Shown here one piece after another: positions 37,899 to 50,052 of a stretch of DNA of 64,000 nt. The position numbers were made by a program, and so were the translations under genes. The notes below the pieces were generated by a model. That model did no database searches, had not been told where the DNA came from, and was given only the letters and a program-made list of their open reading frames with translations. Numbering within the stretch: position 1 is the first letter of the stretch; each line of letters starts with the position of its first letter. Source of the DNA: Bacteroidia bacterium (GTDB lineage Bacteria; Bacteroidota; Bacteroidia; J057); assembly GCA_033764335.1 (NCBI GenBank), contig JANRJC010000034.1, positions 20,899 through 84,898 of the forward strand, given 5' to 3'.

Positions 37899-38660
37899 TT
37901 AGGGTAGTTTACGCTGTAATTCTACGGCTTGGTTGTGGTAGTAATGTCCGGGGTCGCGTATGATCGAATCCAGAATTGTACGGGTCCTTTCCAGATCACT
38001 CGCTTTTAGCCGGGCAAGTGCCTTGTACCACATCGTCTGTTCGGGTACAAAAGAGGTTCGGTCAAGAACCTCCGCAGCTTCTGTCGGAGCGTGGAGTTCC
38101 AGCAAAGATATGGCGAAGTAAAAATCGGCTTCAGAGTATTTCGTTGTATCAATCAATAGCTGTTCTCTATATTTTTCAGTATATCGGAGGTAATCACCTT
38201 TGCGGTAAGCTGCATACATTTGATTGAGCTGTTCCCGGTCGCCTCCGGCTCCGAGGGTTTCAGGCGCGCGCGGAACCTCATAATAAGCCGAAAACAAAGC
38301 TTCTGGGGACAATCGTTTTGAGCGGAGTATGCTCACACTTATTCCGGCAACGGCAACGAGAATGAGTACAACTGCTGCAAGAGAAAACCATTTTCTTCGA
38401 GCAACCGATATTCGTTTTTTCTCTGAAGAAATCTCCTGGTAGATTTTGCGAAGATTTGTTTTTTGGTCTTCCTGCCCGGCCGTCCAGATTGCCCAATGAG
38501 TCAGTAGTTGTAAATGATATTGTTCATTAAAATCTTCATTTTCTCGGCAGACTCGCTCAAAATCCGCCGATTCCGTAGGAGTCATCCTACCCTGAATGTA
38601 TTTTTCTATCTGCCGGGTGGTTTCCGATTTTTCTTCTGATTCCATGTTTTCCGAAATCAT
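37899..38660 (-). CDS. Putative anti-sigma factor (single-pass membrane protein with TPR-like periplasmic domain)
   Basis: ATGA overlap with the upstream sigma factor gene. N-terminal cytoplasmic segment, one TM helix (WFSLAAVVLILVAVAGISVSIL), helical C-terminal domain. Confidence 0.55.
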   Translation of the reverse strand: MISENMESEEKSETTRQIEKYIQGRMTPTESADFERVCRENEDFNEQYHLQLLTHWAIWTAGQEDQKTNLRKIYQEISSEKKRISVARRKWFSLAAVVLILVAVAGISVSILRSKRLSPEALFSAYYEVPRAPETLGAGGDREQLNQMYAAYRKGDYLRYTEKYREQLLIDTTKYSEADFYFAISLLELHAPTEAAEVLDRTSFVPEQTMWYKALARLKASDLERTRTILDSIIRDPGHYYHNQAVELQRKLP

Positions 38661-39268
38661 ATCGTGCGATCTTTTCTTTTTTCCAGTAATTGTCGGAGTT
38701 TACTCATACAGCGATGTTTCTGACTTGCCAGACTGTTTGCATTTTTAAATCCCAACCTTTCCGTGAGTTCCTCCACTTCAAAACCATAATATTCAGACTC
38801 AACCAAAATCTGTCGGCATTTTCCACCGATTTTATCCAACAATAAGAGGATCTGATTCATGTCCTCACTTTCGATCAATCGCATAAGTGTGGTTTTTGCC
38901 TCTGTTTTCATATTAGGCAAAAGCTCTACCTGCTCCTTAATAGAAGAAGACGAATTTTTTCTGACACGATCAACACACCGGTTACAAAAAGATTTGTACA
39001 GGTATCCGGTCAGATTGCCTTCCGACTGAAATGCCTCATTATTAATCCGGTTACAAAGGCCAATTATCGCGTCTCCATACGCATCAACTGCCTCGTCTTC
39101 ACCAAGGTGATATTTTCGTTGTCCTTTCCTCACAAAATCCACGTGCCGATGGTAGAGATAGCTCGTAATACGCTGTCGCAACATGCCCCCCTGCTTGATT
39201 CCGGAAATGATTTCCGCATCAGAGTAATTTTGATCGGTTTCATTGCGCATAGTGAAGGCGGAAAACAA
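38657..39268 (-). CDS. Sigma-70 family (ECF-like) RNA polymerase sigma factor
   Basis: Region-2-like segment (EDEAVDAYGDAIIGLCNRI...GYLYKSFCNRCVDRVRK) and a region-4 HTH (CRQILVESEYYGFEVEELTERLGFKNANSLASQKHRCMSKLRQLL). Confidence 0.75.
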   Translation of the reverse strand: MFSAFTMRNETDQNYSDAEIISGIKQGGMLRQRITSYLYHRHVDFVRKGQRKYHLGEDEAVDAYGDAIIGLCNRINNEAFQSEGNLTGYLYKSFCNRCVDRVRKNSSSSIKEQVELLPNMKTEAKTTLMRLIESEDMNQILLLLDKIGGKCRQILVESEYYGFEVEELTERLGFKNANSLASQKHRCMSKLRQLLEKRKDRTI

Positions 39269-39456: not shown

Positions 39457-40272
39457 ATGAAAAACCTCTGCTTCACACATGTCGTTACGCTTTACGTCGT
39501 TTTTCTTTGTTTCTCGCTAAACCTTCAGGCACAGCCGGGCAATAGGCCAAGTTTTGCCGTGTGGGACTGCGATGGGCAAGGCATGATGGCACCTCCCCCG
39601 AGTTGGACGGCAGTCGGCCAAACCATGGCCCTGCTCGATTCTGTGAGTTATGCATTCCCCACGGGAACCACGGCTACGGATGTTAAATTTGTTTTCCAGT
39701 TTGAAGACTCCTCCGGAAAAATTCTTGATGTTCTCTACCCTGTCGTCGGATCAAAAGCTTATGAGTTGACTTACAACTTATCGAGCCTTCCTGCGGATGT
39801 CACACTAAGTACCTCTCCGGCCGGTATGGATTTGAGTTTCCGACTGAATACCCAGACTGTACAACCCACATCCGGAAGTTTTATTAAAGTCTATTACGAA
39901 GTCTGGACCCAAGATGCTTCTGTCCCGGGGTCCGTATTTAAATTGCTGGACGGGCAGACAAAAACTTCTTGGTATAAACACAGCCTTTCGTGTAACAAGC
40001 TGATGGGAAAAGCCCGAGTCGGGCTGTTTGGCCGAACCGAGATTCAGGCAAACCCCAATCCATTCAACGATTACCTCTATATCGTTGCTGAAACCGAAAC
40101 ATCGGTTGTAAAAATTATGGATTCACAAGGCAGAACGATCCGCGTGCTGACTGTTCCGGCAGGAGATCGCCCCGTTCGTTTTCCTACCGAAGACATTCCC
40201 GCAGGTTTGTATTTTCTGCAAAAACAGACCTCCTACGGTATTGAAACTCTTCCCATGGTAAAAACTCATTGA
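39457..40272 (+). CDS. Secreted protein with T9SS C-terminal sorting domain
   Basis: Signal peptide (MKNLCFTHVVTLYVVFLCFSLNLQAQ). C-terminal NPNPFNDYLYIVAE...VKIMDSQGRTIRVL...IPAGLYFLQKQTSYGIETLPMVK is typical of a Por secretion CTD. Confidence 0.75.
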   Translation: MKNLCFTHVVTLYVVFLCFSLNLQAQPGNRPSFAVWDCDGQGMMAPPPSWTAVGQTMALLDSVSYAFPTGTTATDVKFVFQFEDSSGKILDVLYPVVGSKAYELTYNLSSLPADVTLSTSPAGMDLSFRLNTQTVQPTSGSFIKVYYEVWTQDASVPGSVFKLLDGQTKTSWYKHSLSCNKLMGKARVGLFGRTEIQANPNPFNDYLYIVAETETSVVKIMDSQGRTIRVLTVPAGDRPVRFPTEDIPAGLYFLQKQTSYGIETLPMVKTH

Positions 40273-40279
40273 CAAAGGT

Positions 40280-40313
40280 ATTCCGGGCCAAATTTTGAAT
40301 TTTGGCCCGGAAT
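40280..40313 (+). terminator. Strong hairpin terminator after the T9SS-cargo gene
   Basis: 13-bp stem attccgggccaaa / tttggcccggaat (40280-40292 / 40301-40313) with an 8-nt loop and a T-rich tail (ctgatttttt). It overlaps the alternative-start codon called at 40302, which favours the ATG at 40344 for the next gene. Confidence 0.8.
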
Positions 40314-40343
40314 CCTGATTTTTTGAGAAATTGCCAGAAGCCT

Positions 40344-43217
40344 ATGTATTACTCCCTGTCAACAATTCGGTTTTACCCGCTTTTTTTGTTTTTATATATG
40401 GGAATTCCTGCTGCCATGGCTCAGTCCTCCCAGCAAGCAGAAGATTTGGCCCATGCACAAAAATGGATGGACGAAGCCTATATATATTTTCAGCAAAATC
40501 CCGATACAGCCATCTATTACCTTTTAAAGGCATTGCCGCTATTTGAAAAACATTCCGAATGGGAATCTTATAGCAGTTGTATGAATGGCCTTGTTGCCTG
40601 TTACATGGGGAAAGAGGATTATCTGTTGGCGGAAAATTACGGGCAGGAAACCTTGCTTTTTATCCGGAAACACCTCGGTAAAAAGGTGGAAGTTTACGCC
40701 GATGCCCTCAATAACATGGGTACTTTATACCGGCTTCAGGGCAACCTCAACCTGGCGTTGGAGAACTATGAAGAAGCGCTGTCCATTACCGAAAATCAGG
40801 ACTCGCTCGCGCCGCTTGCCATATCCCGCCTATATTACAATATGGGTATTATTTACCGAAGAAGAGGGGAACCGGATCGCGCAATCAAATTTCATGAAAA
40901 GGCTCTGGCCAATGGCAGTCAGGAGTTACCATCAAACGATCCCCGGTTGATTCAGATTCTGTTTGCGATGGCAAGAGTATATACCGATCAAAAAGCCTGG
41001 AATGAAGCTCTCCATACCAACCTCCGCTGCCTGCAACTACTCGAAAGCGGTAATCCGGAGAAAACCTTCCGGGAAAAAATTAATGTGCATCATCAGCTTG
41101 CTCAGATTTATCTGGATCAGCAAAAAACGGATAGTGCTGCTTTTTATATTGACCAGGCAGACCGTATTCACGCCCGGTTTGGCCATTACCGGGAACAAGT
41201 AGGAGAGAATATTCGAGGAGAAATTGACCGAATCAAACACAATTACCCTCGGGCACTCGTTCATTATCGAAAAGCCTTACAAATGAGGTTGGAAGAATGG
41301 GGAAGCCTGGGTACTAACCCTGATATCGCAAACTCTTTTAAAACAATCGGAAGCCTGTTTGAAGAAACCGGTAAATACGACTCTGCCATTGTCAACTACT
41401 ACCAGGCGTTGCAGTTTTTATGTAAACCCTACAAAGGCAAACTTCCCGCAGCGGCTGACATACTACACCCCTTTGATGTCATCCCCGTGCTGGAATCTAT
41501 TGCCCGGACTTCTATGGCCGGCAACCCAAAATCGTATGCAAAAACTGCTATACAAGCCTGTTTGCTGGCAGATACAACCATTGCTCGCTTACGCCATACT
41601 TATCAGGAAGATAATGCCAAACTACAACTGGGCCAGAAATTCCGCAACACCTATGAAACCGGGATAAAACTGTTTTTTCAGCAATTTCAGGAAACCCATA
41701 ATACCGCCTTTCTCGAAAAAGCATTCCTTTTTTCCGAAAAATCGCGATCTATGGCTCTGACCGACGCACTCCAATCCACAGGTGCCAAACTCAGCGTCGG
41801 TATTCCCGATAGCATTAGCAGAAAAGAACAACAAATTCTCATCAATAGAACTTTTTATCAGGAAAAACTATTTCAGGAAACCCTCAAAGGAGATCAGGCA
41901 GATACCGTAAAAATCAAAAAATGGAAAGAGGCACTTTTTAATGCAGAAGAAGCTTACCACCGCTTTATCCGCTATCTGGAATCTGCATTTCCGGCTTATT
42001 TTCAGCTAAAATATGACCCCTCTTCTTTATCTATTGCAGAGGTGCAGAAACAGTTTCCGGACAAAAATACTACACTGTTGGAGTATTTTTGGGGAGAAAA
42101 AAATATTTACATTTTCCTCCTTACCACTCAGGGAATTAGCGGTCATTCGTTGTCCAAAACAGATGATATGACCCAGGCCGTTGACGGACTTCGCTATTTT
42201 CTACACAAGCCTGATTATTCGCCGGAGGTTTTACAGAAATTTGTCCGAAACAGCAACATTTTATATAAAGGGCTGATTTCGCCCATATTAGGAAATCGCG
42301 ATTCCGGAAAATTATTGATCATTCCCGATGGACCGCTCTCCTATATTCCCTTCGAAATTCTGCTTAGTAAAGCTATTCAGAGCGATTCCCTACTGAAGTC
42401 TTCGGATTTTCGTTCTATGCCCTATCTTATCCGGAAGTTTGAAATCGGCTACGGACTTTCTGCGCGATTATTTTTCCATGAATTACCCCCGTCAACCAAA
42501 CCCAGGAAACTGTTGGGAGCGTTTTCACCCATTTACCCCGATTCATTGTTACTCACCTACAGCAGAGAAAACGCAATAGACATTACGGCCACCCAAAAAG
42601 GGACCCTATTTCTCGACCACGACGCTACTAAATCAACATTTAAAACACAGGCTGGGCATTTTCGCATACTACATCTTGCTATGCACGGATTTTCAAACGA
42701 AAAAGAACCGCTGCTTGCACATTTGCTTTTTTCAGGTGAACCCGATAGCAGCACCCAACTCTACGCATTTGAGTTATACAATATGCTCATTCCCGCAGAT
42801 TTGGTCGTCTTAGCAGCCTGTGAAACCGGAGATGGAAAATTAATACCGGGCGAAGGCATCATGAGTCTGGCAAGAGCTTTCCGATATGCAGGTAGTGCCG
42901 CCATGGTAAGTAGCCTGTGGAAAGCCGACGGGCGTTCAACATCCGATATTTTACAATCATTTTACCACGATTTATTTGAGGGGCATTCCAAAACTGCGGC
43001 TCTACGTCAGGCCAGGCTGCGTTTCCTTGATCAATGCACACCCGACCTGGTGCACCCCTATTATTGGGCCAATCATATCCTTATTGGCAACCCGGCGCCG
43101 CTAAATACAGAAATACCGGGCTGGGTTTATATCGGAATCTTAGCTTTGATAAGTACCGTTCTTATATTTATTTTTTTTCTCAGAAAAAAAATGAAAAATC
43201 CGATGATTAGAGCATAA
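40344..43217 (+). CDS. TPR-repeat + CHAT-domain (caspase-like protease) protein with N-terminal signal and C-terminal TM anchor
   Basis: Signal-like N-terminus (MYYSLSTIRFYPLFLFLYMGIPAAMAQ) and multiple TPR units (ALNNMGTLYRLQGNLNLALENYEEAL...). The C-terminal CHAT domain has a His (FRILHLAMHGF) and Cys (DLVVLAACETGDG) dyad and HPYYWA. A terminal TM helix follows (WVYIGILALISTVLIFIFFL). Confidence 0.85.
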   Translation: MYYSLSTIRFYPLFLFLYMGIPAAMAQSSQQAEDLAHAQKWMDEAYIYFQQNPDTAIYYLLKALPLFEKHSEWESYSSCMNGLVACYMGKEDYLLAENYGQETLLFIRKHLGKKVEVYADALNNMGTLYRLQGNLNLALENYEEALSITENQDSLAPLAISRLYYNMGIIYRRRGEPDRAIKFHEKALANGSQELPSNDPRLIQILFAMARVYTDQKAWNEALHTNLRCLQLLESGNPEKTFREKINVHHQLAQIYLDQQKTDSAAFYIDQADRIHARFGHYREQVGENIRGEIDRIKHNYPRALVHYRKALQMRLEEWGSLGTNPDIANSFKTIGSLFEETGKYDSAIVNYYQALQFLCKPYKGKLPAAADILHPFDVIPVLESIARTSMAGNPKSYAKTAIQACLLADTTIARLRHTYQEDNAKLQLGQKFRNTYETGIKLFFQQFQETHNTAFLEKAFLFSEKSRSMALTDALQSTGAKLSVGIPDSISRKEQQILINRTFYQEKLFQETLKGDQADTVKIKKWKEALFNAEEAYHRFIRYLESAFPAYFQLKYDPSSLSIAEVQKQFPDKNTTLLEYFWGEKNIYIFLLTTQGISGHSLSKTDDMTQAVDGLRYFLHKPDYSPEVLQKFVRNSNILYKGLISPILGNRDSGKLLIIPDGPLSYIPFEILLSKAIQSDSLLKSSDFRSMPYLIRKFEIGYGLSARLFFHELPPSTKPRKLLGAFSPIYPDSLLLTYSRENAIDITATQKGTLFLDHDATKSTFKTQAGHFRILHLAMHGFSNEKEPLLAHLLFSGEPDSSTQLYAFELYNMLIPADLVVLAACETGDGKLIPGEGIMSLARAFRYAGSAAMVSSLWKADGRSTSDILQSFYHDLFEGHSKTAALRQARLRFLDQCTPDLVHPYYWANHILIGNPAPLNTEIPGWVYIGILALISTVLIFIFFLRKKMKNPMIRA

Positions 43218-43314
43218 ACCTTACGTGTTGTAATAATTGAGGACGCAGGCGGCGGCATGTCGTTTTATCTGCGAAATCACAAAACTTATTGTAACACACT
43301 CAAATTAATGGTTT

Positions 43315-43506
43315 ATGAAAAACAAAAAAGATCAATTGCTTGAGCAGTTTGATGCTTTCAAACTCAACGAAGTGAAAACTTCCAGCCGTATCAAAGGTGG
43401 ACAGAAGCCCGGCGACACTGCGTCCTATGTTGAGCACACTTATGATGGGATTTCTTTCGATCATATATTCCATACGGATGATAAGTTTGCTGCGGTGGGA
43501 AAATAA
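43315..43506 (+). CDS. RiPP precursor peptide with double-glycine leader (candidate ATP-grasp-modified peptide)
   Basis: 63 aa: MKNKKDQLLEQFDAFKLNEVKTSSRIKGG | QKPGDTASYVEHTYDGISFDHIFHTDDKFAAVGK. The helical leader ends in I-K-G-G. The core is rich in Asp/Glu/Thr/Ser/Lys/His. It sits immediately upstream of the maturase and exporter genes. Confidence 0.75.
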   Translation: MKNKKDQLLEQFDAFKLNEVKTSSRIKGGQKPGDTASYVEHTYDGISFDHIFHTDDKFAAVGK

Positions 43507-43538
43507 TTACCCCAAAATGATTTATTAATTCATCAGGT

Positions 43539-43579
43539 AAACACGCCAGTAATCGCCCTGATGGCTGGCGTGTTTTTTT
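43539..43579 (+). terminator. Intrinsic terminator/attenuator between the precursor and maturase genes
   Basis: 11-bp stem aaacacgccag / ctggcgtgttt (43539-43549 / 43565-43575) followed by a T-run to 43579. A second complementary pair, catcagg (43531-37) / cctgatg (43557-63), interleaves with it. Confidence 0.8.
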
Positions 43580-43591
43580 ACCCTATACCCA

Positions 43592-44587
43592 ATGGTCATC
43601 ATCAGTTCCCAAAACAGCGACATTTCTACCGGCGAAGTCATGGACTGGCTGAGAAGTATGGGTACGCCCGTTTACCGTATCAATGGTGAAGTTTTTGAGG
43701 CGGCTTTAGGTGAATTTGAGATGAACATCCGCCCGGAAATGCCTGCTTCCCTGACCCTCGAAGTAGAAGGAAAACCGGTTGCACTCGAAGACATTACCGC
43801 ATTCTGGTTTCGGCGTTCGGCGATAGACAATACCGCCGCTTCCCGGCTGGAATCATACTCTGCTTCGCCAGACTTAAAAAAACAAATGCTGGGGCATTTG
43901 GGCATGGAGTCATCCGCTTTACAAACCGCTTTTTTTTCCTGGCTTTCCGACAAGAAAACACTGGGCAATTATCGCGAAAAAGGCATGAACAAACTCGCTG
44001 TCCTGCAAATGGCTCGGGCCACAGGACTGGAAGTCCCCGCGACACTTGTCACCAATTCTAAAGAAAAACTCAGAACTTTTGCCCGGCAATACCCCGAAAT
44101 GATTACCAAATGCCTATCGGAAGTCAGATCATTTCAGTTGGAAGGGAAAATGATGGGCATGTACACCAGCACCCTTGACATCGCCGAAGTTGAAGATTTG
44201 CCAGATTTTTTCGCACCGTCGTTGTTTCAGCAAAATATTCAAAAAGAGTTTGAACTCAGGGTCTTTTACCTCGCGGGGGAAGTATTCTCCATGGCTATTT
44301 TCTCTCAGCTTGATCCTGTAACTGCCGTGGATTTCCGGCAGTACAACCACGAAAAAAACAACCGGGTAGTGCCCTACGCACTCCCGGACGATATCACAGA
44401 CAAGATTCGCAAACTAATGAGTGCTCTTTCGCTCAATACTGGTTCTGTGGACATAATCAAATCCACTGACCGGAAATATATTTTCCTTGAAGTCAATCCG
44501 GTCGGGCAATTTGGGATGGTATCAAAGCCCTGTAACTATTTTCTCGAAAAAAAGATCGCGCAGTTTTTAATGAGTAATACCGCATGA
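43592..44587 (+). CDS. ATP-grasp peptide maturase (RimK/microviridin-ligase-like; 'grasp-with-spasm' type)
   Basis: MVIISSQNSDISTGEVMDWL N-terminus. ATP-grasp core: NKLAVLQMARATGLEVPATLVTN, ELRVFYLAGEVFSMAIFSQ...VDFRQY, and GSVDIIKSTDRKYIFLEVNPVGQF (Mg/ATP E-x-N). Confidence 0.85.
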   Translation: MVIISSQNSDISTGEVMDWLRSMGTPVYRINGEVFEAALGEFEMNIRPEMPASLTLEVEGKPVALEDITAFWFRRSAIDNTAASRLESYSASPDLKKQMLGHLGMESSALQTAFFSWLSDKKTLGNYREKGMNKLAVLQMARATGLEVPATLVTNSKEKLRTFARQYPEMITKCLSEVRSFQLEGKMMGMYTSTLDIAEVEDLPDFFAPSLFQQNIQKEFELRVFYLAGEVFSMAIFSQLDPVTAVDFRQYNHEKNNRVVPYALPDDITDKIRKLMSALSLNTGSVDIIKSTDRKYIFLEVNPVGQFGMVSKPCNYFLEKKIAQFLMSNTA

Positions 44588-44764
44588 AACAGCCCGAAAT
44601 ACTACAGAAAAAAATAACCGGTGAATTGCCGGTTTTGTACAATCTTCTCAAAGAAATGAAAAGCGATCCTTCTCTGGTTCGTTTTGTATCCAGTACTCGC
44701 CATCAGACCCGCCTTTACGGAACCGGATTTTTTTATAAACCCCTATCCCGATTTGTATCTCAAC

Positions 44765-45799
44765 ATGGAACTACCTGTAATGACCCGGACGGACAATAAG
44801 TGTTTTATGCTTTTTGCCTCCTGCATTCCTGTAAAAGGATTTGCCAAAAGCATCATTGCCGATATTCAACGGGAACAATACCTGCCTGTGCCCAACCTTC
44901 TGGCAGATATCCTGATTGAAAATCGAGGGGTTTCTATAGGTGAAATCAAAAACCGGTATCAGCATCAGTATGACGAAGGGTTGGATAGCTATTTCCAGGA
45001 ACTGGCCCGCTCCGAATGGGGATTTTTTACAGAAGACCCTGACTGTTTCCCGCCATTATCGCTGGAATGGGATCATCCATCGGCGATTACTCATGCCATT
45101 CTGGATATAGATCAATCAAGGCATTATGAGTTAACACCCGTCATAAAAGAATTGGATGAACAGGGATGTAAAGCGTTACAAATCAGAGGATTTGGAGAGA
45201 TTGATACGCTCTCTATGGAAGAATGGCTGGAGGCAGCCGAAGATACCGGAATTTTTTCGCTGGAAATGATTCTTCCCTTATCTGCTTTCCGCTCTGTAAG
45301 TGAAGCAGAAAAAATGATACTGCGATACTGTCGGATTGTTTCGCTGACACTGTATGGGGCTGAAAATGAAGGATTTGCAAACACTACACACCCCGCTTCC
45401 GAAGACATTATTTACCTTACCCGACAAGCCGTCACCCCATATTCAAAAGAGCTAAGCGGTCCCGAGTTTTTTACGACCAATATTCATGCCTTTACTGAAG
45501 CACAACATTTCAACCTCGGACTAAATCGGAAAATAACGGTAGATATAAGGGGCAATATTCGGCATTTTCCGGGTCATAGCAGGGTATTTGGGCATATATC
45601 GTCAGATACATTGACCGCAGTCGTGGGCACAAAAGAATTTCAGGCTGTCTGGCAAACCCCTGTTGATAAGATTGAAAACTGTAAAGAATGTGAGTTTCGA
45701 TATATGTGTGCGGACAATAGCGAGGTTGTGCAAAAAGGTGAAAAAATTTACAGACTCACTACTTGCACTTATAATCCCCGAACAGGCGAGTGGCAATAA
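44765..45799 (+). CDS. SPASM-domain-type peptide maturase homologue without a canonical radical-SAM CxxxCxxC motif
   Basis: Near the N-terminus: NKCFMLFASCIPVKGFAKSIIADIQRE. C-terminal Cys cluster C-x2-C-x5-C-x18-C (NCKECEFRYMC...TTC), resembling the last part of a SPASM/twitch domain. No CxxxCxxC anywhere in the ORF. The start is uncertain (ATG 44765 or 44780; the ORF track begins at TTG 44684). Confidence 0.7.
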   Translation: MELPVMTRTDNKCFMLFASCIPVKGFAKSIIADIQREQYLPVPNLLADILIENRGVSIGEIKNRYQHQYDEGLDSYFQELARSEWGFFTEDPDCFPPLSLEWDHPSAITHAILDIDQSRHYELTPVIKELDEQGCKALQIRGFGEIDTLSMEEWLEAAEDTGIFSLEMILPLSAFRSVSEAEKMILRYCRIVSLTLYGAENEGFANTTHPASEDIIYLTRQAVTPYSKELSGPEFFTTNIHAFTEAQHFNLGLNRKITVDIRGNIRHFPGHSRVFGHISSDTLTAVVGTKEFQAVWQTPVDKIENCKECEFRYMCADNSEVVQKGEKIYRLTTCTYNPRTGEWQ

Positions 45800-45813
45800 A
45801 AATAGTAAACCCT

Positions 45814-48000
45814 ATGGCTGGTTTCCCTTATTACAAACAGTTGGATGTGATGGATTGCGGTCCTACTTGTATAAGGATGATCGCCAGGCATTACGGGCGC
45901 CATTATACACTAAAAACCCTCAGGGAAAAAAGTACGGTGGATCGGGAAGGCATTTCGCTACAAGGGATCGGTGAAATCGCCGAAGCCGTTGGTTTTCGGT
46001 CTTTGGGGGTAAAACTGGACTTTGATACTCTTGCAAAAGAAGCCCCCCTTCCAGCCGTTGCACACTGGAACCAGAACCATTTCGTCGTAGTCTATAAGAT
46101 AAAAAATGACAAGATTTACATAGCCGACCCCGCCTACGGTATGCTGGTCTATTCGAAGCAGGATTTTATTAAAAGTTGGGCATCGGACCGTCAAAATGGT
46201 GCCGAAAGCGGCATCTTGCTGCTTTTGGAACCCGGCCCCGATTTTTTGGAAAGAGAAGAAGAAAAACAGGATAAAAGCAGCTTCCGGTTTCTGTTCCGAT
46301 ACCTATCCCCATTCCGCAAATACCTCACACAGTTGTTTTTTGGCCTGATTCTCGGGAGTTTGTTTCAGTTGATATTTCCCTTTCTGACTCAGGCCGTAGT
46401 AGATTTTGGCGTAGGTACGCGAAATGTGGGATTTGTTTATTTGATCCTTATCGCTCAACTGGTGCTTTTTGCGAGCCAGATGGCGATGCAGTTTATTCAG
46501 GCATGGATACTTATTCACCTTAGTACACGCATAAATATTTCCATTCTTTCAGATTTCCTGATTAAGCTGATGAAACTGCCAGTGGGCTTTTTCGACAGTA
46601 AAAAAACTGGCGACCTGATGCAGCGAATTGGCGATCACCGGAGGATTGAACTATTTCTTACCGATGCGGTACTCAATAGCCTATTCTCACTATTTACCCT
46701 TGTGATTCTGGGGTTCGTTTTGGCTATTTACAGCCTGCCCGTATTTTTCATTTTCCTTACCGGAAGTACCTTATATGTAGGCTGGATTCTGCTTTTCCTG
46801 AAAAAAAGAGCACAACTGGATCACAAGAGTTTTGCCCAAATGGCAGCAGAACAGAGCAATATCATCCAGTTGATCACCGGAATGCAGGAAATCAAACTTA
46901 ACAATATCGAAAGATCAAGGCGGTGGGAATGGGAACGCATTCAGGCAAAGTTGTTTCGTATTAATCTCAAAAAACTGAGTCTCACCCAATACCAGCAAGG
47001 CGGTGCGCGGTTTTTTAACCAGATACAGAATATACTCATTATTTTCATTTCTGCCCAGGCTGTGATTGAAGGCGATATGACCATGGGCATGATGATGGCC
47101 ATCACCTATATCTCAGGGCAGTTGAACACCCCTATCGGACAGTTGATATCCTTTCTGCAACAGGCACAGGATGCCAAAATAAGCCTGGAACGTCTGGGGG
47201 AAATACATAACAGCCAGGACGAAGATGAAGAGGGAGGAATAGCAAATGATTTTTTCCCCTCTGACCGAAGTATCAGCATCCGCAACCTCGGTTTTCGTTA
47301 CGGGGGGACAGGAAGTGCAGAGGTATTGAGCAACCTCAGCCTGCATATTCCCAAAGGAAAAATTACGGCGATTGTCGGAGCGAGTGGCAGCGGAAAAACC
47401 ACCCTGATCAAACTCCTGCTTAAATTTTACCCGCCCCAGGAAGGACAGATTCAGATCGGTAATATTCGATTGGAAGATATACGCAGCCACAAATGGCGAA
47501 ACAGTTGTGGCGTAGTCATGCAAGACGGATTTATCTTTTCCGACAGCATCGCCAATAATATTGCCATGGAGGAAACCATAGATAAGTATCGCCTCCAGCA
47601 GGCTGTGGCTATTGCCAATATACGCCCGTTCATTGACGAATTACCACTGGGGTTTAATACCAAAATCGGGCAAGAAGGACTGGGACTGAGTGGGGGGCAG
47701 AAACAACGTATTCTGATCGCTCGTGCGGTTTACAAAAACCCCGACTATCTATTTTTTGACGAAGCCACCAGTGCCCTTGACGCCACCAACGAAAGACAGA
47801 TCATGGAAAATCTGGAAAATTTTTTTATAGGCAAAACCGTAATCATCGTTGCGCATCGCTTGAGCACTGTAAAAAATGCAGACCAGATCATCGTTTTGGA
47901 TAGGGGAAAAGTAGTAGAAACCGGGCATCATTCGACCTTGGTGGACCATCGTGGGCAATATTATTCACTGATCAAAAACCAGTTGGAACTGGGCAACTAA
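45814..48000 (+). CDS. Peptidase-C39-domain ABC transporter (double-glycine leader-cleaving bacteriocin/RiPP exporter)
   Basis: N-terminal C39 domain (QLDVMDCGPTCIRMIARHYG catalytic Cys; VAHWNQNHFVVVYKI His). Six-TM ABC membrane domain. NBD with Walker A GASGSGKTT, signature LSGGQKQR, Walker B LFFDEATSALD. Confidence 0.9.
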   Translation: MAGFPYYKQLDVMDCGPTCIRMIARHYGRHYTLKTLREKSTVDREGISLQGIGEIAEAVGFRSLGVKLDFDTLAKEAPLPAVAHWNQNHFVVVYKIKNDKIYIADPAYGMLVYSKQDFIKSWASDRQNGAESGILLLLEPGPDFLEREEEKQDKSSFRFLFRYLSPFRKYLTQLFFGLILGSLFQLIFPFLTQAVVDFGVGTRNVGFVYLILIAQLVLFASQMAMQFIQAWILIHLSTRINISILSDFLIKLMKLPVGFFDSKKTGDLMQRIGDHRRIELFLTDAVLNSLFSLFTLVILGFVLAIYSLPVFFIFLTGSTLYVGWILLFLKKRAQLDHKSFAQMAAEQSNIIQLITGMQEIKLNNIERSRRWEWERIQAKLFRINLKKLSLTQYQQGGARFFNQIQNILIIFISAQAVIEGDMTMGMMMAITYISGQLNTPIGQLISFLQQAQDAKISLERLGEIHNSQDEDEEGGIANDFFPSDRSISIRNLGFRYGGTGSAEVLSNLSLHIPKGKITAIVGASGSGKTTLIKLLLKFYPPQEGQIQIGNIRLEDIRSHKWRNSCGVVMQDGFIFSDSIANNIAMEETIDKYRLQQAVAIANIRPFIDELPLGFNTKIGQEGLGLSGGQKQRILIARAVYKNPDYLFFDEATSALDATNERQIMENLENFFIGKTVIIVAHRLSTVKNADQIIVLDRGKVVETGHHSTLVDHRGQYYSLIKNQLELGN

Positions 48001-49322
48001 TGACGGAGAACCTTTACCATAACGGACAGAAGCTTGAAGCACCTCAAATTGAGCTTTATAGTGAGGAAGTACAAGAAATAATGGGGACTATCCCTCCCTG
48101 GATAATTCGGCGAGGAATGGTAGTGATGTTAGTCCTGGTATTCGGATTGCTGGCGCTTTCAGCATTGGTTCATTATCCCGATATGATTTCTGCGAGGATC
48201 ACACTGACCACGACGTCTCCCCCCATAAGAATTTTCGCCCGTGCAAACGGGAAAATCACCCAATTGTTGGTTGAAAATCAGGCTATTGTGTCAGAAGGAA
48301 CTTATTTGGCGGTCATTGAAAACGCTGCGAATACCGCCTCCGTTTTTGCATTGGAAAAACTTTTAAACAAAGGCCTCGCTGATCATACAAAAATCACCGA
48401 GTGGCCTGCTTTTGACGATCTGGGAGAATTGCAAGGTGCGTATTCAGCTTTTATCCATGCGCGGGAAAATGGTCATTTTTATGCACAGAGCAGCACCTTT
48501 CGCGGCGCACAGCAGGTCTTATTGTCGGAGCAGGCAGAAGAATTACGGGCGATGAACCAAAACCTCGAAGAGCAACGCACTTTACTTCAGCGGGAAACTG
48601 CCATTGCAAAGGCGCAATTTAGAGCCTCGGAAACCCTATACGCCGAAGGCGCCATATCTAAAGTAGAACTCGAAACCAAAGAAGCTACCCTGCTTCAGAA
48701 AGAATTGGCGGCGAAACAGTTACATTCCTCTATTTTCCAAAACAATATACAGATCAGTGAATACCAAAAAAAAATACAGGAGATCCGGCAGGAAAATCTA
48801 CATTCCGGTTTTTCGTTTGATCTGAACATCAGCGATGCCTTTCAGCAGTTGAGTGCGGGGATTGAAAACTGGAAACAAAACTACCTGATTGTCGCCCCGC
48901 AGAAAGGACGTGTGGAATACCTCGATATCTGGGCCGAAAATCAGTATGTAAAAACAGGTGCAGAAGTAATCAGCATTGTACCCGATTCAGAGGAAGTTTT
49001 GGGCAAAGCAATTGTTTCTTCGCTCAACGCAGGTAAAATACAAACCGGACAAAAAGTAAATATTAAACTTGACAACTACGATTATCGGGAGTTTGGGATG
49101 CTTTCCGGTGAAATCAGGAACATTTCAAGCCTTGCAAAAGATGGACAATATATCCTCGATATTCAACTGAGTAACGGGCTTCTAACGACGTATAAAAAAA
49201 CCATCCGGTTTCAGTCAGAAATGTACGGCCAAGCGGAGGTCATTACCCAGGACATCAGTCTGCTGGACAGGATATTTTTCCAGTTTCGGGAGCTGCTGAC
49301 GCCAACAGTGGTTAATGGTTAA
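48000..49322 (+). CDS. HlyD-family membrane-fusion/secretion adaptor protein
   Basis: N-terminal TM helix (VVMLVLVFGLLALSALV), beta/lipoyl-like segments flanking a long coiled coil (LEEQRTLLQRETAIAKAQFRASETLY...), and a C-terminal beta-barrel domain. Its start overlaps the ABC stop (TAATG). Confidence 0.8.
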   Translation: MTENLYHNGQKLEAPQIELYSEEVQEIMGTIPPWIIRRGMVVMLVLVFGLLALSALVHYPDMISARITLTTTSPPIRIFARANGKITQLLVENQAIVSEGTYLAVIENAANTASVFALEKLLNKGLADHTKITEWPAFDDLGELQGAYSAFIHARENGHFYAQSSTFRGAQQVLLSEQAEELRAMNQNLEEQRTLLQRETAIAKAQFRASETLYAEGAISKVELETKEATLLQKELAAKQLHSSIFQNNIQISEYQKKIQEIRQENLHSGFSFDLNISDAFQQLSAGIENWKQNYLIVAPQKGRVEYLDIWAENQYVKTGAEVISIVPDSEEVLGKAIVSSLNAGKIQTGQKVNIKLDNYDYREFGMLSGEIRNISSLAKDGQYILDIQLSNGLLTTYKKTIRFQSEMYGQAEVITQDISLLDRIFFQFRELLTPTVVNG

Positions 49323-49418: not shown

Positions 49419-49751
49419 CTAGTCATCCAAAAATCCACTTACGGCCTGCTTTAGTTCAGATATTTTATAAGTGACGTAGTTCCACAAGTTTGCAGGACGA
49501 GCAGAATCATACTGATGTACCAGTGTATTCCGCCTGTTAATTGCCTGATCCTGACCAGGAAAATAAAACTGGAGTTTCAGTAATTGGTAGGCAGCTTCCC
49601 CTATTATTGCGAGTTCCCGCTCCACAGAAAGAATGGTTTTCAGATCATTACAAAATTCTTCTTCCGTATTGATCCCATCCAGATGAACCTTTTCGATGTC
49701 TTCGATACACTGAAGAATATCAAACAGATATTTTTTCTCTTTCCTGGTCAT
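49419..49751 (-). CDS. hepT: HepT-like (DUF86) toxin of a nucleotidyltransferase-type TA pair
   Basis: 110 aa with the R-x4-H-x-Y motif (RRNTLVHQYD). It overlaps the upstream antitoxin gene by 32 nt. Confidence 0.75.
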   Translation of the reverse strand: MTRKEKKYLFDILQCIEDIEKVHLDGINTEEEFCNDLKTILSVERELAIIGEAAYQLLKLQFYFPGQDQAINRRNTLVHQYDSARPANLWNYVTYKISELKQAVSGFLDD

Positions 49752-50052
49752 AGATTAATACCTTGGTTTCATCAACTTCAGCCTTGAAGTAGGGATTTCT
49801 AAGCCCTGGATACCACACCAAATCGACAGAGTGCCCCAGCAATTTCTCCGCCTCATCCTGAAAAGCAAAAAAATAGTCTATCGAATCTGCACCAGACAGA
49901 TTGGCGTGATTTAATTCATACAAAAAATCAATATCCGAATCGGGTCCAAATCTGGTAGTTAATGCAGAGCCAAACAGCCATAACTTGCTGAAGTGATACT
50001 TCAGGCAAAGATTTCTGATTGCGTCAATATATGGCTTTAATTCTGCGTTCAT
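49720..50052 (-). CDS. mntA: MntA-like minimal nucleotidyltransferase antitoxin
   Basis: G-S-x(n)-D-x-D nucleotidyltransferase motif (LWLFGSALTTRFGPDSDIDFLYE). 110 aa. Confidence 0.75.
   Translation of the reverse strand: MNAELKPYIDAIRNLCLKYHFSKLWLFGSALTTRFGPDSDIDFLYELNHANLSGADSIDYFFAFQDEAEKLLGHSVDLVWYPGLRNPYFKAEVDETKVLIYDQEREKISV

Follow-up and report, generated by a model that had tools for sequence, protein, structure and literature searches.

GwsS of a Bacteroidia grasp-with-spasm cluster: a SPASM-domain protein without a radical-SAM motif and a predicted partner of the ATP-grasp ligase

The open reading frame (ORF) at positions 44765-45799 of the window, the whole 64-kb stretch of DNA analysed, is GwsS of a grasp-with-spasm graspetide gene cluster. 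The radical-SAM motif CxxxCxxC is absent from it, and this absence is real but ordinary, being the defining state of the whole GwsS family. Taken as a whole, the data are best explained by GwsS acting as a leader-binding Fe-S pseudo-radical-SAM partner of the ATP-grasp ligase, a reading that we favour with moderate confidence. Few uncharacterised graspetide groups are as large as the grasp-with-spasm clusters. GwsS is loosely termed a radical SAM enzyme in some surveys, with thioether-type chemistry as the predicted outcome; the comparative data argue against this view and point to a leader-binding pseudoenzyme partner. If the partner role is true, heterologous production would need GwsG, the LPL microprotein, and GwsS together, and product structures would have to be predicted as ATP-grasp linkages only.

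Against the NCBIfam model TIGR04193 ("grasp-with-spasm system SPASM domain peptide maturase"), GwsS scored 219 bits, above the cutoff of 175, and profile positions 2-333 of 342 were aligned to residues 14-344. The model matched all aligned homologues (42/42), and the identical NCBI protein (P0001) already bears the same grasp-with-spasm SPASM name. As expected of a TIGR04193 member, gwsS adjoins a TIGR04192 ATP-grasp gene; the pairing was found in nearly all of 80 loci. The GwsS family is known already: it is curated and widespread, sits beside ATP-grasp peptide-cyclising enzymes, and appears in graspetide surveys as branch 5 (Makarova et al. 2022) or group 14 (Mitchell lab). At least 581 species-level genomes carry a locus of the family, and clustering its proteins at 50% identity leaves about 2,300 representatives. 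About 280 members were examined, 86 in 80 genomic loci and 194 from databases, and 42 homologues were aligned. The hosts are aerobes and anaerobes (Aquimarina, Chryseobacterium, Thermoanaerobaculia), and grasp-with-spasm clusters were also found on Porphyromonas gingivalis mobile elements. A Pfam scan of the window GwsS gave no match, and we found no experiment on any GwsS in the literature consulted. The features of the cluster are listed in Table 1.

Table 1. Positions in the window of the cluster genes and of the predicted GwsS domains and ligands
Feature	Positions	Strand	Evidence
Graspetide precursor peptide, 63 aa	43315..43506	+	ORF list; kept in three syntenic relatives; dN/dS 0.07 vs L081
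gwsG, grasp-with-spasm ATP-grasp peptide maturase	43592..44587	+	TIGR04192, 300.9 bits (cutoff 230)
LPL-family microprotein, 71 aa, motifs ELPVLY and FFYKPLSRF	44584..44799	+	Conservation; dN/dS 0.08
gwsS, grasp-with-spasm SPASM-domain protein, 344 aa	44765..45799	+	TIGR04193; NCBI name; AF2 model; dN/dS
GwsS residues 1-92, predicted RRE-like winged-helix domain	44765..45040	+	AF2 domain model; Foldseek
GwsS residues 93-225, predicted shortened beta/alpha core at the radical-SAM barrel position	45041..45439	+	AF2 model; Foldseek
GwsS residues 226-344, SPASM-like domain, predicted Aux II ligand set only	45440..45796	+	Cys column counts; anSME homology
Predicted Aux II codons: C306; C309; C315; C334	45680-45682; 45689-45691; 45707-45709; 45764-45766	+	
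C39 double-glycine peptidase / ABC exporter	45814..48000	+	Pfam Peptidase_C39, ABC_membrane, ABC_tran; TIGR01193, TIGR03796
HlyD-family membrane-fusion adaptor of the exporter	48000..49322	+	TIGR01843; Pfam HlyD_3

The cluster runs in the order precursor, GwsG, LPL microprotein, GwsS, C39/ABC exporter, and HlyD. The precursor leader, MKNKKDQLLEQFDAFKLNEVKTSSRIKGG, terminates in a double glycine, and the core is rich in Thr, Ser, Asp, Glu, and Lys and has no Cys; Cys is likewise missing from the cores of the three syntenic relatives. Pfam matches the gwsG product weakly to the MvdD pre-ATP-grasp domain, and this gene immediately precedes the SPASM gene in almost all of the 80 loci. The stretch between them had been taken for an alternative frame of gwsS in the initial annotation; it is a separate conserved gene of the LPL family, which is named in PMC8939145. 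A small ORF with the motifs LP[LVI]x[FY] and FYKPISK was found between the grasp and SPASM genes in 73/82 gene pairs, and the microprotein is conserved in the three closest relatives (L081, L082, L083). Its ATG overlaps the gwsG stop (ATGA), and at the 3' end it shares 35 nt with the beginning of gwsS. In nearly every locus, the grasp gene, the small ORF, and the SPASM gene are neighbours on the same strand. In-frame LPL-GwsS fusions were found in L002, L080, and six cluster representatives; the extended "SPASM" ORFs of L014, L062, and L063 were rejected as fusions, being spurious upstream ORF extensions in high-GC genomes. The exporter ORF opens with GTG at 45790, and its likely start is the tabulated ATG, by comparison with the 728-aa orthologue of L081. 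Four genes of the cluster are under purifying selection (dN/dS 0.07-0.10). An upstream TPR/CHAT protein was considered as a part of the system and rejected, since it is syntenic in the three closest relatives only and is absent from the 80 wider loci.

The Cys residues in the translation of gwsS are C13, C20, C94, C135, C189, C306, C309, C315, and C334. CxxxCxxC had been reported missing from this ORF, from its extension to the TTG at 44684, and from the overlapping LPL frame, and the checked translations bear this out. In a six-frame search of positions 43000-46500, the sole CxxxCxxC lay in a short, stop-interrupted stretch of the reverse strand. The motif was present in 0/86 members from the 80 genomic loci and in 0/194 database members. 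Pfam Radical_SAM (PF04055) matched neither the window protein nor any of 42 members (0/42) at E<=1, and in all aligned members the loop that follows the first core strand, the expected place of the triad, is free of Cys. The TIGR04193 description itself presumably notes the absent motif. The missing motif is neither special to this gene nor new; it is the family-wide state of curated TIGR04193, which carries the gene name gwsS. A genuine radical-SAM partner encoded nearby was also considered and rejected: none of the ORFs of at least 150 aa across the window has CxxxCxxC, an ORF with an N-terminal CxxxCxxC lies within 6 kb at 2/80 loci only and is not consistent across the family, and an rSAM-SPASM protein is encoded within 6 kb at 0/80 loci.

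A frameshift hiding an N-terminal CxxxCxxC, which the initial annotation had named among the events that would overturn its claim, is excluded, and the ORF is full length, because the TIGR04193 profile is covered nearly end to end and GwsS length, start, and synteny are unchanged in the three relatives at 77%, 61%, and 46% identity. The wider suspicion that gwsS lacks the motif as a truncated, frameshifted, or decaying gene is hardly credible; gwsS also has a dN/dS of 0.097 and about 280 homologues of like architecture, and the comparative data refute such an artefact already.

At the C-terminus, the motif C306-x2-C309-x5-C315-x18-C334 (CKECEFRYMC...TTC) is present exactly as first described. 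Its Cys residues are invariant in 42/42, 86/86, and 194/194 homologues, and therefore the motif is not due to chance. In anSME, Aux II is ligated by C317/C320/C326/C348 and Aux I by C255/C261/C276/C330 (PMC5715301). By homology with anSME, the four invariant Cys of GwsS are predicted to correspond to SPASM auxiliary cluster II, and one putative [4Fe-4S] site, equivalent to Aux II (C306, C309, C315, C334), is left in the clade of the window protein. The Aux I positions are occupied by K228, G252, F268, and N318 (N318 codon, 45716-45718). The SPASM domain is defined by the seven-Cys motif CX9-15GX4C-gap-CX2CX5CX3C-gap-C, which binds Aux I and Aux II (PMC6231123); only CX2CX5C and the final C remain in the window GwsS. 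The SPASM model TIGR04085 scored 18 bits, below its cutoff of 27, and PF13186 did not match the window protein, while it matched 21/42 relatives at E<=1. The first reading of these Cys as the distal part of a SPASM domain is correct for the retained residues but incomplete, as the missing Aux I ligands are present in most of the family. Similarly, the fourth Cys of the canonical motif had been read as replaced by Ser; S319 indeed occupies the canonical +4 position after C315, but the Cys of the family sits at +3, which is N318 here. In the SPASM region, 29/119 columns were at least 85% identical.

All four Aux I cysteines are gone in the clade of the window GwsS, a minority of 18/86 genomic members; among database members, 27/194 are Aux I-less, including four with partial Cys patterns. 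The loss was all-or-none across the 86 genomic members, and a few intermediates (CYCS, FYCN) were seen in the wider sample of 194. The Aux I-less proteins form one diverse clade (36/126 sequences, one Fitch change), and the loss is thus evidence from a single event, not from several. We did not find a description of this clade in the literature. It keeps the same operon partners, which argues that the cluster closest to the former active site is dispensable for the function common to the family. Most members of the family, for example from Chitinophaga and Aquimarina, retain every Aux I ligand, which would be odd for a pure scaffold. Aux I loss was also considered as tracking Cys-free precursors; no correlation was seen with a noisy heuristic that predicted a mean of 1.41 core Cys at Aux I-containing loci (34% Cys-free) and 1.71 at Aux I-less loci (41% Cys-free). 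The natural clades with and without Aux I and the LPL-GwsS fusions are ready constructs for work on auxiliary clusters without radical chemistry.

The AF2 model of full-length GwsS had a pLDDT of 92.8, and that of residues 1-92 had a pLDDT of 91.7. The latter consists of four strands followed by three helices, a pattern that fits the winged-helix fold of a RiPP recognition element (RRE), a three-stranded sheet and then three helices. Its top Foldseek matches in the PDB were RREs (TbiB1, CteB, TruD, ThcOx, lasso B1, SuiB, PbtF, and MccB), at TM 0.5-0.67 and probabilities reaching 1.0, but with modest E-values of 0.02-1. The identity to the CteB RRE was 24-27%, and no PqqD/RRE sequence model (Pfam, NCBIfam) matched residues 1-92. 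On these models, the N-terminus of GwsS is predicted to fold as an RRE. The N-terminal C13-x6-C20 pair noted initially is present in the translation, and of the two only C20 is conserved (41/42, 84/86, and 185/194). It is located on RRE strand 3 and belongs to a near-invariant C20-I-P-V-K-G motif in the RRE hairpin (C20 codon, 44822-44824).

In the model, the core alternates strands and helices in some four to five beta/alpha units, at the place where radical-SAM enzymes have a partial (beta/alpha)6 TIM barrel. Conservation is lowest here, with 5/117 columns at least 85% identical (L130, L133, C135, R141, and R190 only), as against 15/79 in the RRE region; identity to L081 was 65% in the core and 92% in the RRE. 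None of the SAM-binding motifs (GGE, ribose, GxIxGxxE) is conserved in the core. A PDB sequence profile search with the family alignment gave two chance-level matches and no rSAM enzyme, and therefore a fold comparison was needed. The best PDB matches of the full-length model were CteB, SuiB, and anSME, with Foldseek probability of 0.9-1.0 but TM of only 0.27-0.36. Because the global superposition on rSAM enzymes is poor, it is chiefly the Foldseek probability and the order of the domains that support homology of the core. GwsS probably descends from a peptide maturase of the kind represented by CteB and SuiB, with RRE, radical-SAM, and SPASM domains.

From these data, we infer precursor binding, complex formation, and cluster content of GwsS as follows. 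GwsS would not cleave SAM. Its N-terminal RRE would bind the precursor peptide, and, jointly with the LPL microprotein, GwsS would bring the substrate to GwsG or act as its scaffold. A structural role, or at most one in electron relay or sensing, would fall to the Fe-S cluster that is left. GwsG would then make ester/amide macrocycles, and the C39/ABC/HlyD system would cut the leader after GG and export the product. Two background observations favour this scheme: the ATP-grasp enzyme MirB requires the non-catalytic partner MirC, which has a weak RRE resemblance in its N-domain (PMC13097080), and the usual ATP-grasp leader motif is missing from branch-5 precursors (PMC8939145). A more specific version, in which RRE and LPL form an obligatory recruitment module for the ATP-grasp enzyme and the SPASM domain of this clade is an Aux II-only inverse Twitch whose cluster is structural or a redox switch, seems plausible to us but falls somewhat short of probable. 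If true, group-14 graspetide synthesis would be a three-protein process. The near-invariant C20 in the RRE stands against the partner model, which offers no explanation for it.

The initial annotation had offered two readings for the missing motif. The loss of radical chemistry, with a role as a peptide-binding or Fe-S partner, agrees with the RRE fold, the poorly conserved core without SAM motifs, and the strict ATP-grasp pairing. The other reading, in which GwsS cleaves SAM via a [4Fe-4S] cluster with a non-canonical ligand set, is very unlikely. Radical-SAM enzymes with variant Cys spacings exist, and beyond the SPASM region conservation extends to two more Cys, C20 (84/86) and C135 (79/86). 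However, these are the only two candidate ligands and lie in different domains of the model: the RRE hairpin holds C20, while C135 is placed at the bottom of a core strand, at the N-terminal end. The Cys-free loop after the first core strand, the scarcity of conserved core columns, the lack of any conserved SAM-binding motif, and the failure of the Radical_SAM HMM to match any member all speak against it.

More weight attaches to GwsS as an active tailoring enzyme performing SAM-independent Fe-S redox chemistry on the peptide (oxidation, dehydrogenation, or crosslinking) before or after cyclisation, although we regard this too as unlikely. The invariant Aux II Cys together with conserved polar residues of the SPASM region (E245, N250, N254, K256, and R312) exceed the usual need of a structural metal site and could indicate catalysis; the four-Cys Aux I site is kept in most members, an RRE fits an enzyme as well as a scaffold, and graspetide surveys assume that GwsS modifies the peptide (PMC8939145). 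Nevertheless, we know of no SAM-independent catalysis by a SPASM domain. The window clade lost Aux I, next to the former active site, with its operon unchanged, and conservation is lowest in the core, which would have to shape the active-site cavity. The precursor core in the window lineage has no Cys, which excludes Cys-based thioether or disulfide chemistry there, and the predicted precursor Cys content, from the noisy heuristic, is alike with and without Aux I. A redox or oxygen-sensing gate, in which the state of a surface-exposed [4Fe-4S] cluster controls the ATP-grasp/exporter machinery, is quite improbable. Aux II alone among the clusters is kept across the whole family and is the cluster nearest the protein surface in anSME and PqqE (PMC5715301), but the family is found in both aerobic and anaerobic hosts, and sensing needs no dedicated RRE.

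Compared with known systems, the window protein shares with the TIGR04193 family the operon (GG-leader precursor, TIGR04192, LPL, C39/ABC, and HlyD), the absence of CxxxCxxC, and the Cx2Cx5C...C pattern, and stands apart in belonging to the minority clade that has lost all four Aux I Cys. The RRE / radical-SAM / SPASM RiPP maturases CteB and SuiB (PDB 5wgg, 5v1q) have the same three-domain order and are the best structural matches of the full-length and N-terminal models, whereas GwsS lacks the radical-SAM cluster, its core is much shorter and poorly conserved, its global superposition is poor (TM about 0.3), and the window protein has one predicted auxiliary-cluster site only. That rSAM-less SPASM relatives are a recognised category is seen from the names and weak matches of two other curated families, the TIGR04150 pseudo-rSAM protein and the TIGR04304 GeoRSP system SPASM domain protein; GwsS scores far below their cutoffs (17 vs 250 for TIGR04150), and their gene contexts are different. 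To our knowledge, the functions of both families are uncharacterised. Residues 1-92 resemble PqqD and other stand-alone or fused RREs in predicted fold and predicted leader-binding role, but match no sequence model and carry the near-invariant CIPVKG hairpin motif, which we do not know from any RRE. The Twitch domain (BtrN, MoaA, SkfB) is likewise a reduced SPASM-type domain with a single auxiliary cluster; however, Twitch proteins are active radical-SAM enzymes and keep the first half (Aux I), the ligands of which are those lost in the window GwsS, which keeps the second half (Aux II). MirC, the partner of the graspetide synthetase MirB in rosaritide synthesis (Carter et al. 2026), has an unrelated SurA/PPIase-like fold and no Fe-S cluster, and its requirement was shown by experiment whereas the role of GwsS is predicted; its strict co-occurrence, its degenerate enzyme fold, its weakly RRE-like N-domain, and the need for it in ATP-grasp activity make it the model for the role proposed for GwsS.

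The product of ORF 44765-45799, GwsS, passed the NCBIfam model TIGR04193, "grasp-with-spasm system SPASM domain peptide maturase" (219 bits; cutoff, 175). The matching ATP-grasp maturase model, TIGR04192, was passed by the gene directly upstream of gwsS (300.9 bits; cutoff, 230). An identical NCBI entry from a Bacteroidia MAG carries the same TIGR04193 name. The family is curated and very common, and GwsS had already been annotated as belonging to it. In a recent preprint, such genes are called gwsG and gwsS. A graspetide survey assigned the GwsS family to cluster 20, branch 5 (PMC8939145), and the SPASM-domain protein co-occurring with all group 14 graspetides is the GwsS family (PMC13097080). 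The operon, typical for the family, comprises the precursor, gwsG, a small ORF, gwsS, a C39-peptidase ABC exporter, and an HlyD adaptor. ATG 45814, 14 nt past the gwsS stop, is indicated as the real exporter start by the 728-aa orthologue in L081, one of the three closest syntenic relatives (L081, L082, and L083).

Coordinates of features in the window and of LPL-GwsS fusion loci
Feature	Coordinates	Strand	Remark
Unassigned ORF adjacent to sigma factor gene	37899-38660	-	upstream of precursor
ECF-type sigma factor	38657-39268	-	upstream of precursor
T9SS-tail protein	39457-40272	+	upstream of precursor
TPR/CHAT protein	40302-43217	+	971 aa; just upstream of precursor
Precursor	43315-43506		double-glycine leader; first gene of operon
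gwsG	43592-44587	+	ATP-grasp
LPL-family microprotein	44584-44799	+	71 aa; start on gwsG stop (ATGA); 35-nt overlap with gwsS start
gwsS	44765-45799		344 aa
C-I-P-V-K-G motif	44822-44839		GwsS residues 20-25
SPASM domain of GwsS	45440-45796
C39/ABC exporter, mechanical ORF	opens GTG 45790		overlaps gwsS stop (45790-45816 region)
HepT-like ribonuclease	49419-49751	-	overlaps nucleotidyltransferase
Nucleotidyltransferase	49720-50052	-	overlaps HepT-like ribonuclease
LPL-GwsS fusion, L002	5692-6999
LPL-GwsS fusion, L080	5704-7068

Judged by Pfam domains only, the sigma factor, T9SS-tail, and TPR/CHAT genes hold the same positions in L081, L082, and L083; in each, the sigma gene is cut off by the end of the locus, and in L081 it has no sigma match. 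The 80 wider loci yielded no CHAT homologue. The genes directly downstream of the exporter genes overlap in the manner of a HepT/MNT toxin-antitoxin pair; in L082, a similar place is taken by a nucleotidyltransferase gene and a small ORF next to it.

GwsS contains nine Cys residues (13, 20, 94, 135, 189, 306, 309, 315, and 334). A motif scan of translations found no CxxxCxxC in the ORF, its upstream TTG extension, or the 44584-44799 frame, as the initial annotation had reported. The ORF is complete, because the family profile aligned nearly end to end, the start, length, and neighbours were the same in relatives at 77%, 61%, and 46% identity, and dN/dS against the closest relative was 0.097. 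A hidden frameshift concealing an N-terminal CxxxCxxC, which that annotation had named as grounds for refutation, was excluded by this comparison.

With one genome per species, at least 581 loci encoding GwsS relatives were counted; they fall in Bacteroidota, Acidobacteriota (Thermoanaerobaculia), and a few further phyla. An exhaustive profile search (E≤1e-30) gave 2,324 representatives of clusters formed at 50% identity. CxxxCxxC was absent from all 86 members encoded in the 80 retrieved loci and from all 194 full-length database members; none of the 42 aligned members matched Pfam Radical_SAM, even at E≤1. Loss of the motif is a family-wide trait. Nor is a radical-SAM enzyme provided in trans: every ORF of 150 aa or longer across the 64-kb window lacked CxxxCxxC, and only 2/80 loci had an ORF with the motif within 6 kb. 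The absent motif is the family's normal state; therefore, the finding as first worded was already known. Our literature search found no paper explicitly stating its absence from the ATP-grasp-linked SPASM family, and one survey names these proteins radical SAM enzymes (PMC8939145), so noting the absence fairly corrects a loose use of the term. What this analysis adds is incremental: the predicted RiPP recognition element (RRE) fold, an Aux II-only clade, and LPL-GwsS fusions. The family has been described as Bacteroidetes-specific, yet the locus list was rich in Acidobacteriota (Thermoanaerobaculia, Blastocatellia) and included a Longimicrobiaceae and an Acanthopleuribacteraceae MAG.

A confident AlphaFold2 model was built on 42 homologues (pLDDT 92.8). 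The best PDB matches of the full-length model were the radical-SAM/SPASM enzymes CteB, SuiB, and anSME, with global TM-scores of only about 0.3. Residues 1-92 modelled alone (pLDDT 91.7) matched almost exclusively RREs, namely TbiB1 (TM 0.59-0.67), the CteB RRE (24-27% identity), TruD, ThcOx, a lasso-peptide B1 protein, SuiB, PbtF, and MccB. They are taken as a putative RRE because the matches were enriched for one fold class, despite modest E-values. The core (residues 93-225) was modelled as about four to five beta/alpha units, with no SAM-binding motif conserved across the family. Columns at least 85% identical were fewest in the core (5/117, vs 15/79 in the RRE and 29/119 in the SPASM region), and identity to the closest relative was 65% in the core vs 92% in the RRE. 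The domain order is RRE-like domain, degenerate core, and SPASM remnant. The near-invariant C-I-P-V-K-G motif (C20 in 84/86 members; V23 and G25 invariant) sits in the opening hairpin of the RRE-like domain and is not known as an RRE feature.

The C-terminal C-x2-C-x5-C-x18-C was present exactly as first described. By correspondence with anSME, whose Aux II ligands are C317, C320, C326, and C348 (CX2CX5C plus a final Cys; PMC5715301; SPASM motif as defined in PMC6231123), C306, C309, C315, and C334 form a complete predicted Aux II site; the proposed likeness to the distal part of a SPASM/twitch domain holds for this Cys set. These four showed no variation across the members examined. In most of the family (68/86 genomic and 167/194 database members), Cys also fills the four columns occupied here by K228, G252, F268, and N318; Aux I of anSME is bound by C255, C261, C276, and C330 (PMC5715301). 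The initial annotation placed Ser at the fourth Cys position. S319 does lie at +4, but the family's fourth Cys is at +3 from C315, so the aligned residue is N318. All four Aux I Cys are missing from the window protein and from its clade. Neighbour joining of 126 members grouped the Aux I-less proteins into a single, diverse clade (36 sequences), and one change was inferred. This Aux II-only arrangement is the inverse of the Twitch domain. Besides the window, such members occur at loci L001, L004, L006, L010, L013, L019, L023, L029, L046, L048, L050, L055, L059, L064, L069, L070, and L073. Partial Aux I patterns (CYCS, FYCN) occurred in a few database members. Tandem pairs of gwsG-LPL-gwsS modules were seen in L019, L025, L036, L040, and L064; those of L019 and L064 combine an Aux I-positive with an Aux I-negative module.

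The 44584-44799 frame, first treated as an alternative frame, is a separate conserved gene, translationally coupled to gwsG via the ATGA overlap. Its product has ELPVLY and FFYKPLSRF motifs; an ORF with LP[LVI]x[FY] and FYKPISK motifs held the same slot in 73/82 grasp-SPASM pairs, and the gene was kept in the three closest relatives (dN/dS 0.08). It matches the "LPL family", for which Makarova et al. suggested an auxiliary chaperone role (survey PMC8939145). LPL was fused in frame to the GwsS N-terminus, through a low-complexity linker of 30-60 aa, in two genomes and six cluster representatives (P0064, P0065, P0097, P0110, P0141, and P0179). The fusions are Rosetta-stone evidence that LPL and GwsS act together, and suggest that they may do so physically. 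At the level of gene order, gwsS is tightly coupled to the microprotein gene and to that of the ATP-grasp enzyme. The precursor, gwsG, LPL, and gwsS are all under purifying selection.

We lean towards GwsS being a leader-binding partner of GwsG. As a pseudo-radical-SAM protein, GwsS would use the predicted RRE to bind the precursor and, with LPL, would present it to GwsG; the remaining cluster would have a structural role or, at most, serve as a relay or sensor. The near-invariant C20 hairpin counts against this account, in which it fits no assigned role. Strong conservation of the SPASM region and retention of Aux I by most members leave room for SAM-independent redox chemistry, and GwsS could conceivably be a tailoring enzyme of that kind. 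We consider this unlikely, and prefer the partner role, because a whole clade shed Aux I, which sat closest to the former active site, with the operon unchanged; because the core, where an active-site cavity would form, is under the weakest selection; and because branch-5 precursors lack the leader motif of other graspetide systems and MirB/MirC offers a precedent for partner dependence.

Catalysis through a non-canonical SAM cluster is very improbable. A redox gate is improbable, if less so. That the missing CxxxCxxC is an artefact deserves next to no credence, given the complete ORF. Branch-5 precursors lack the leader motif read directly by other ATP-grasp maturases (PMC8939145). MirB was recently demonstrated to be a partner-dependent graspetide synthetase (PMC13097080), and its partner protein, MirC, is the precedent for the role predicted for GwsS.
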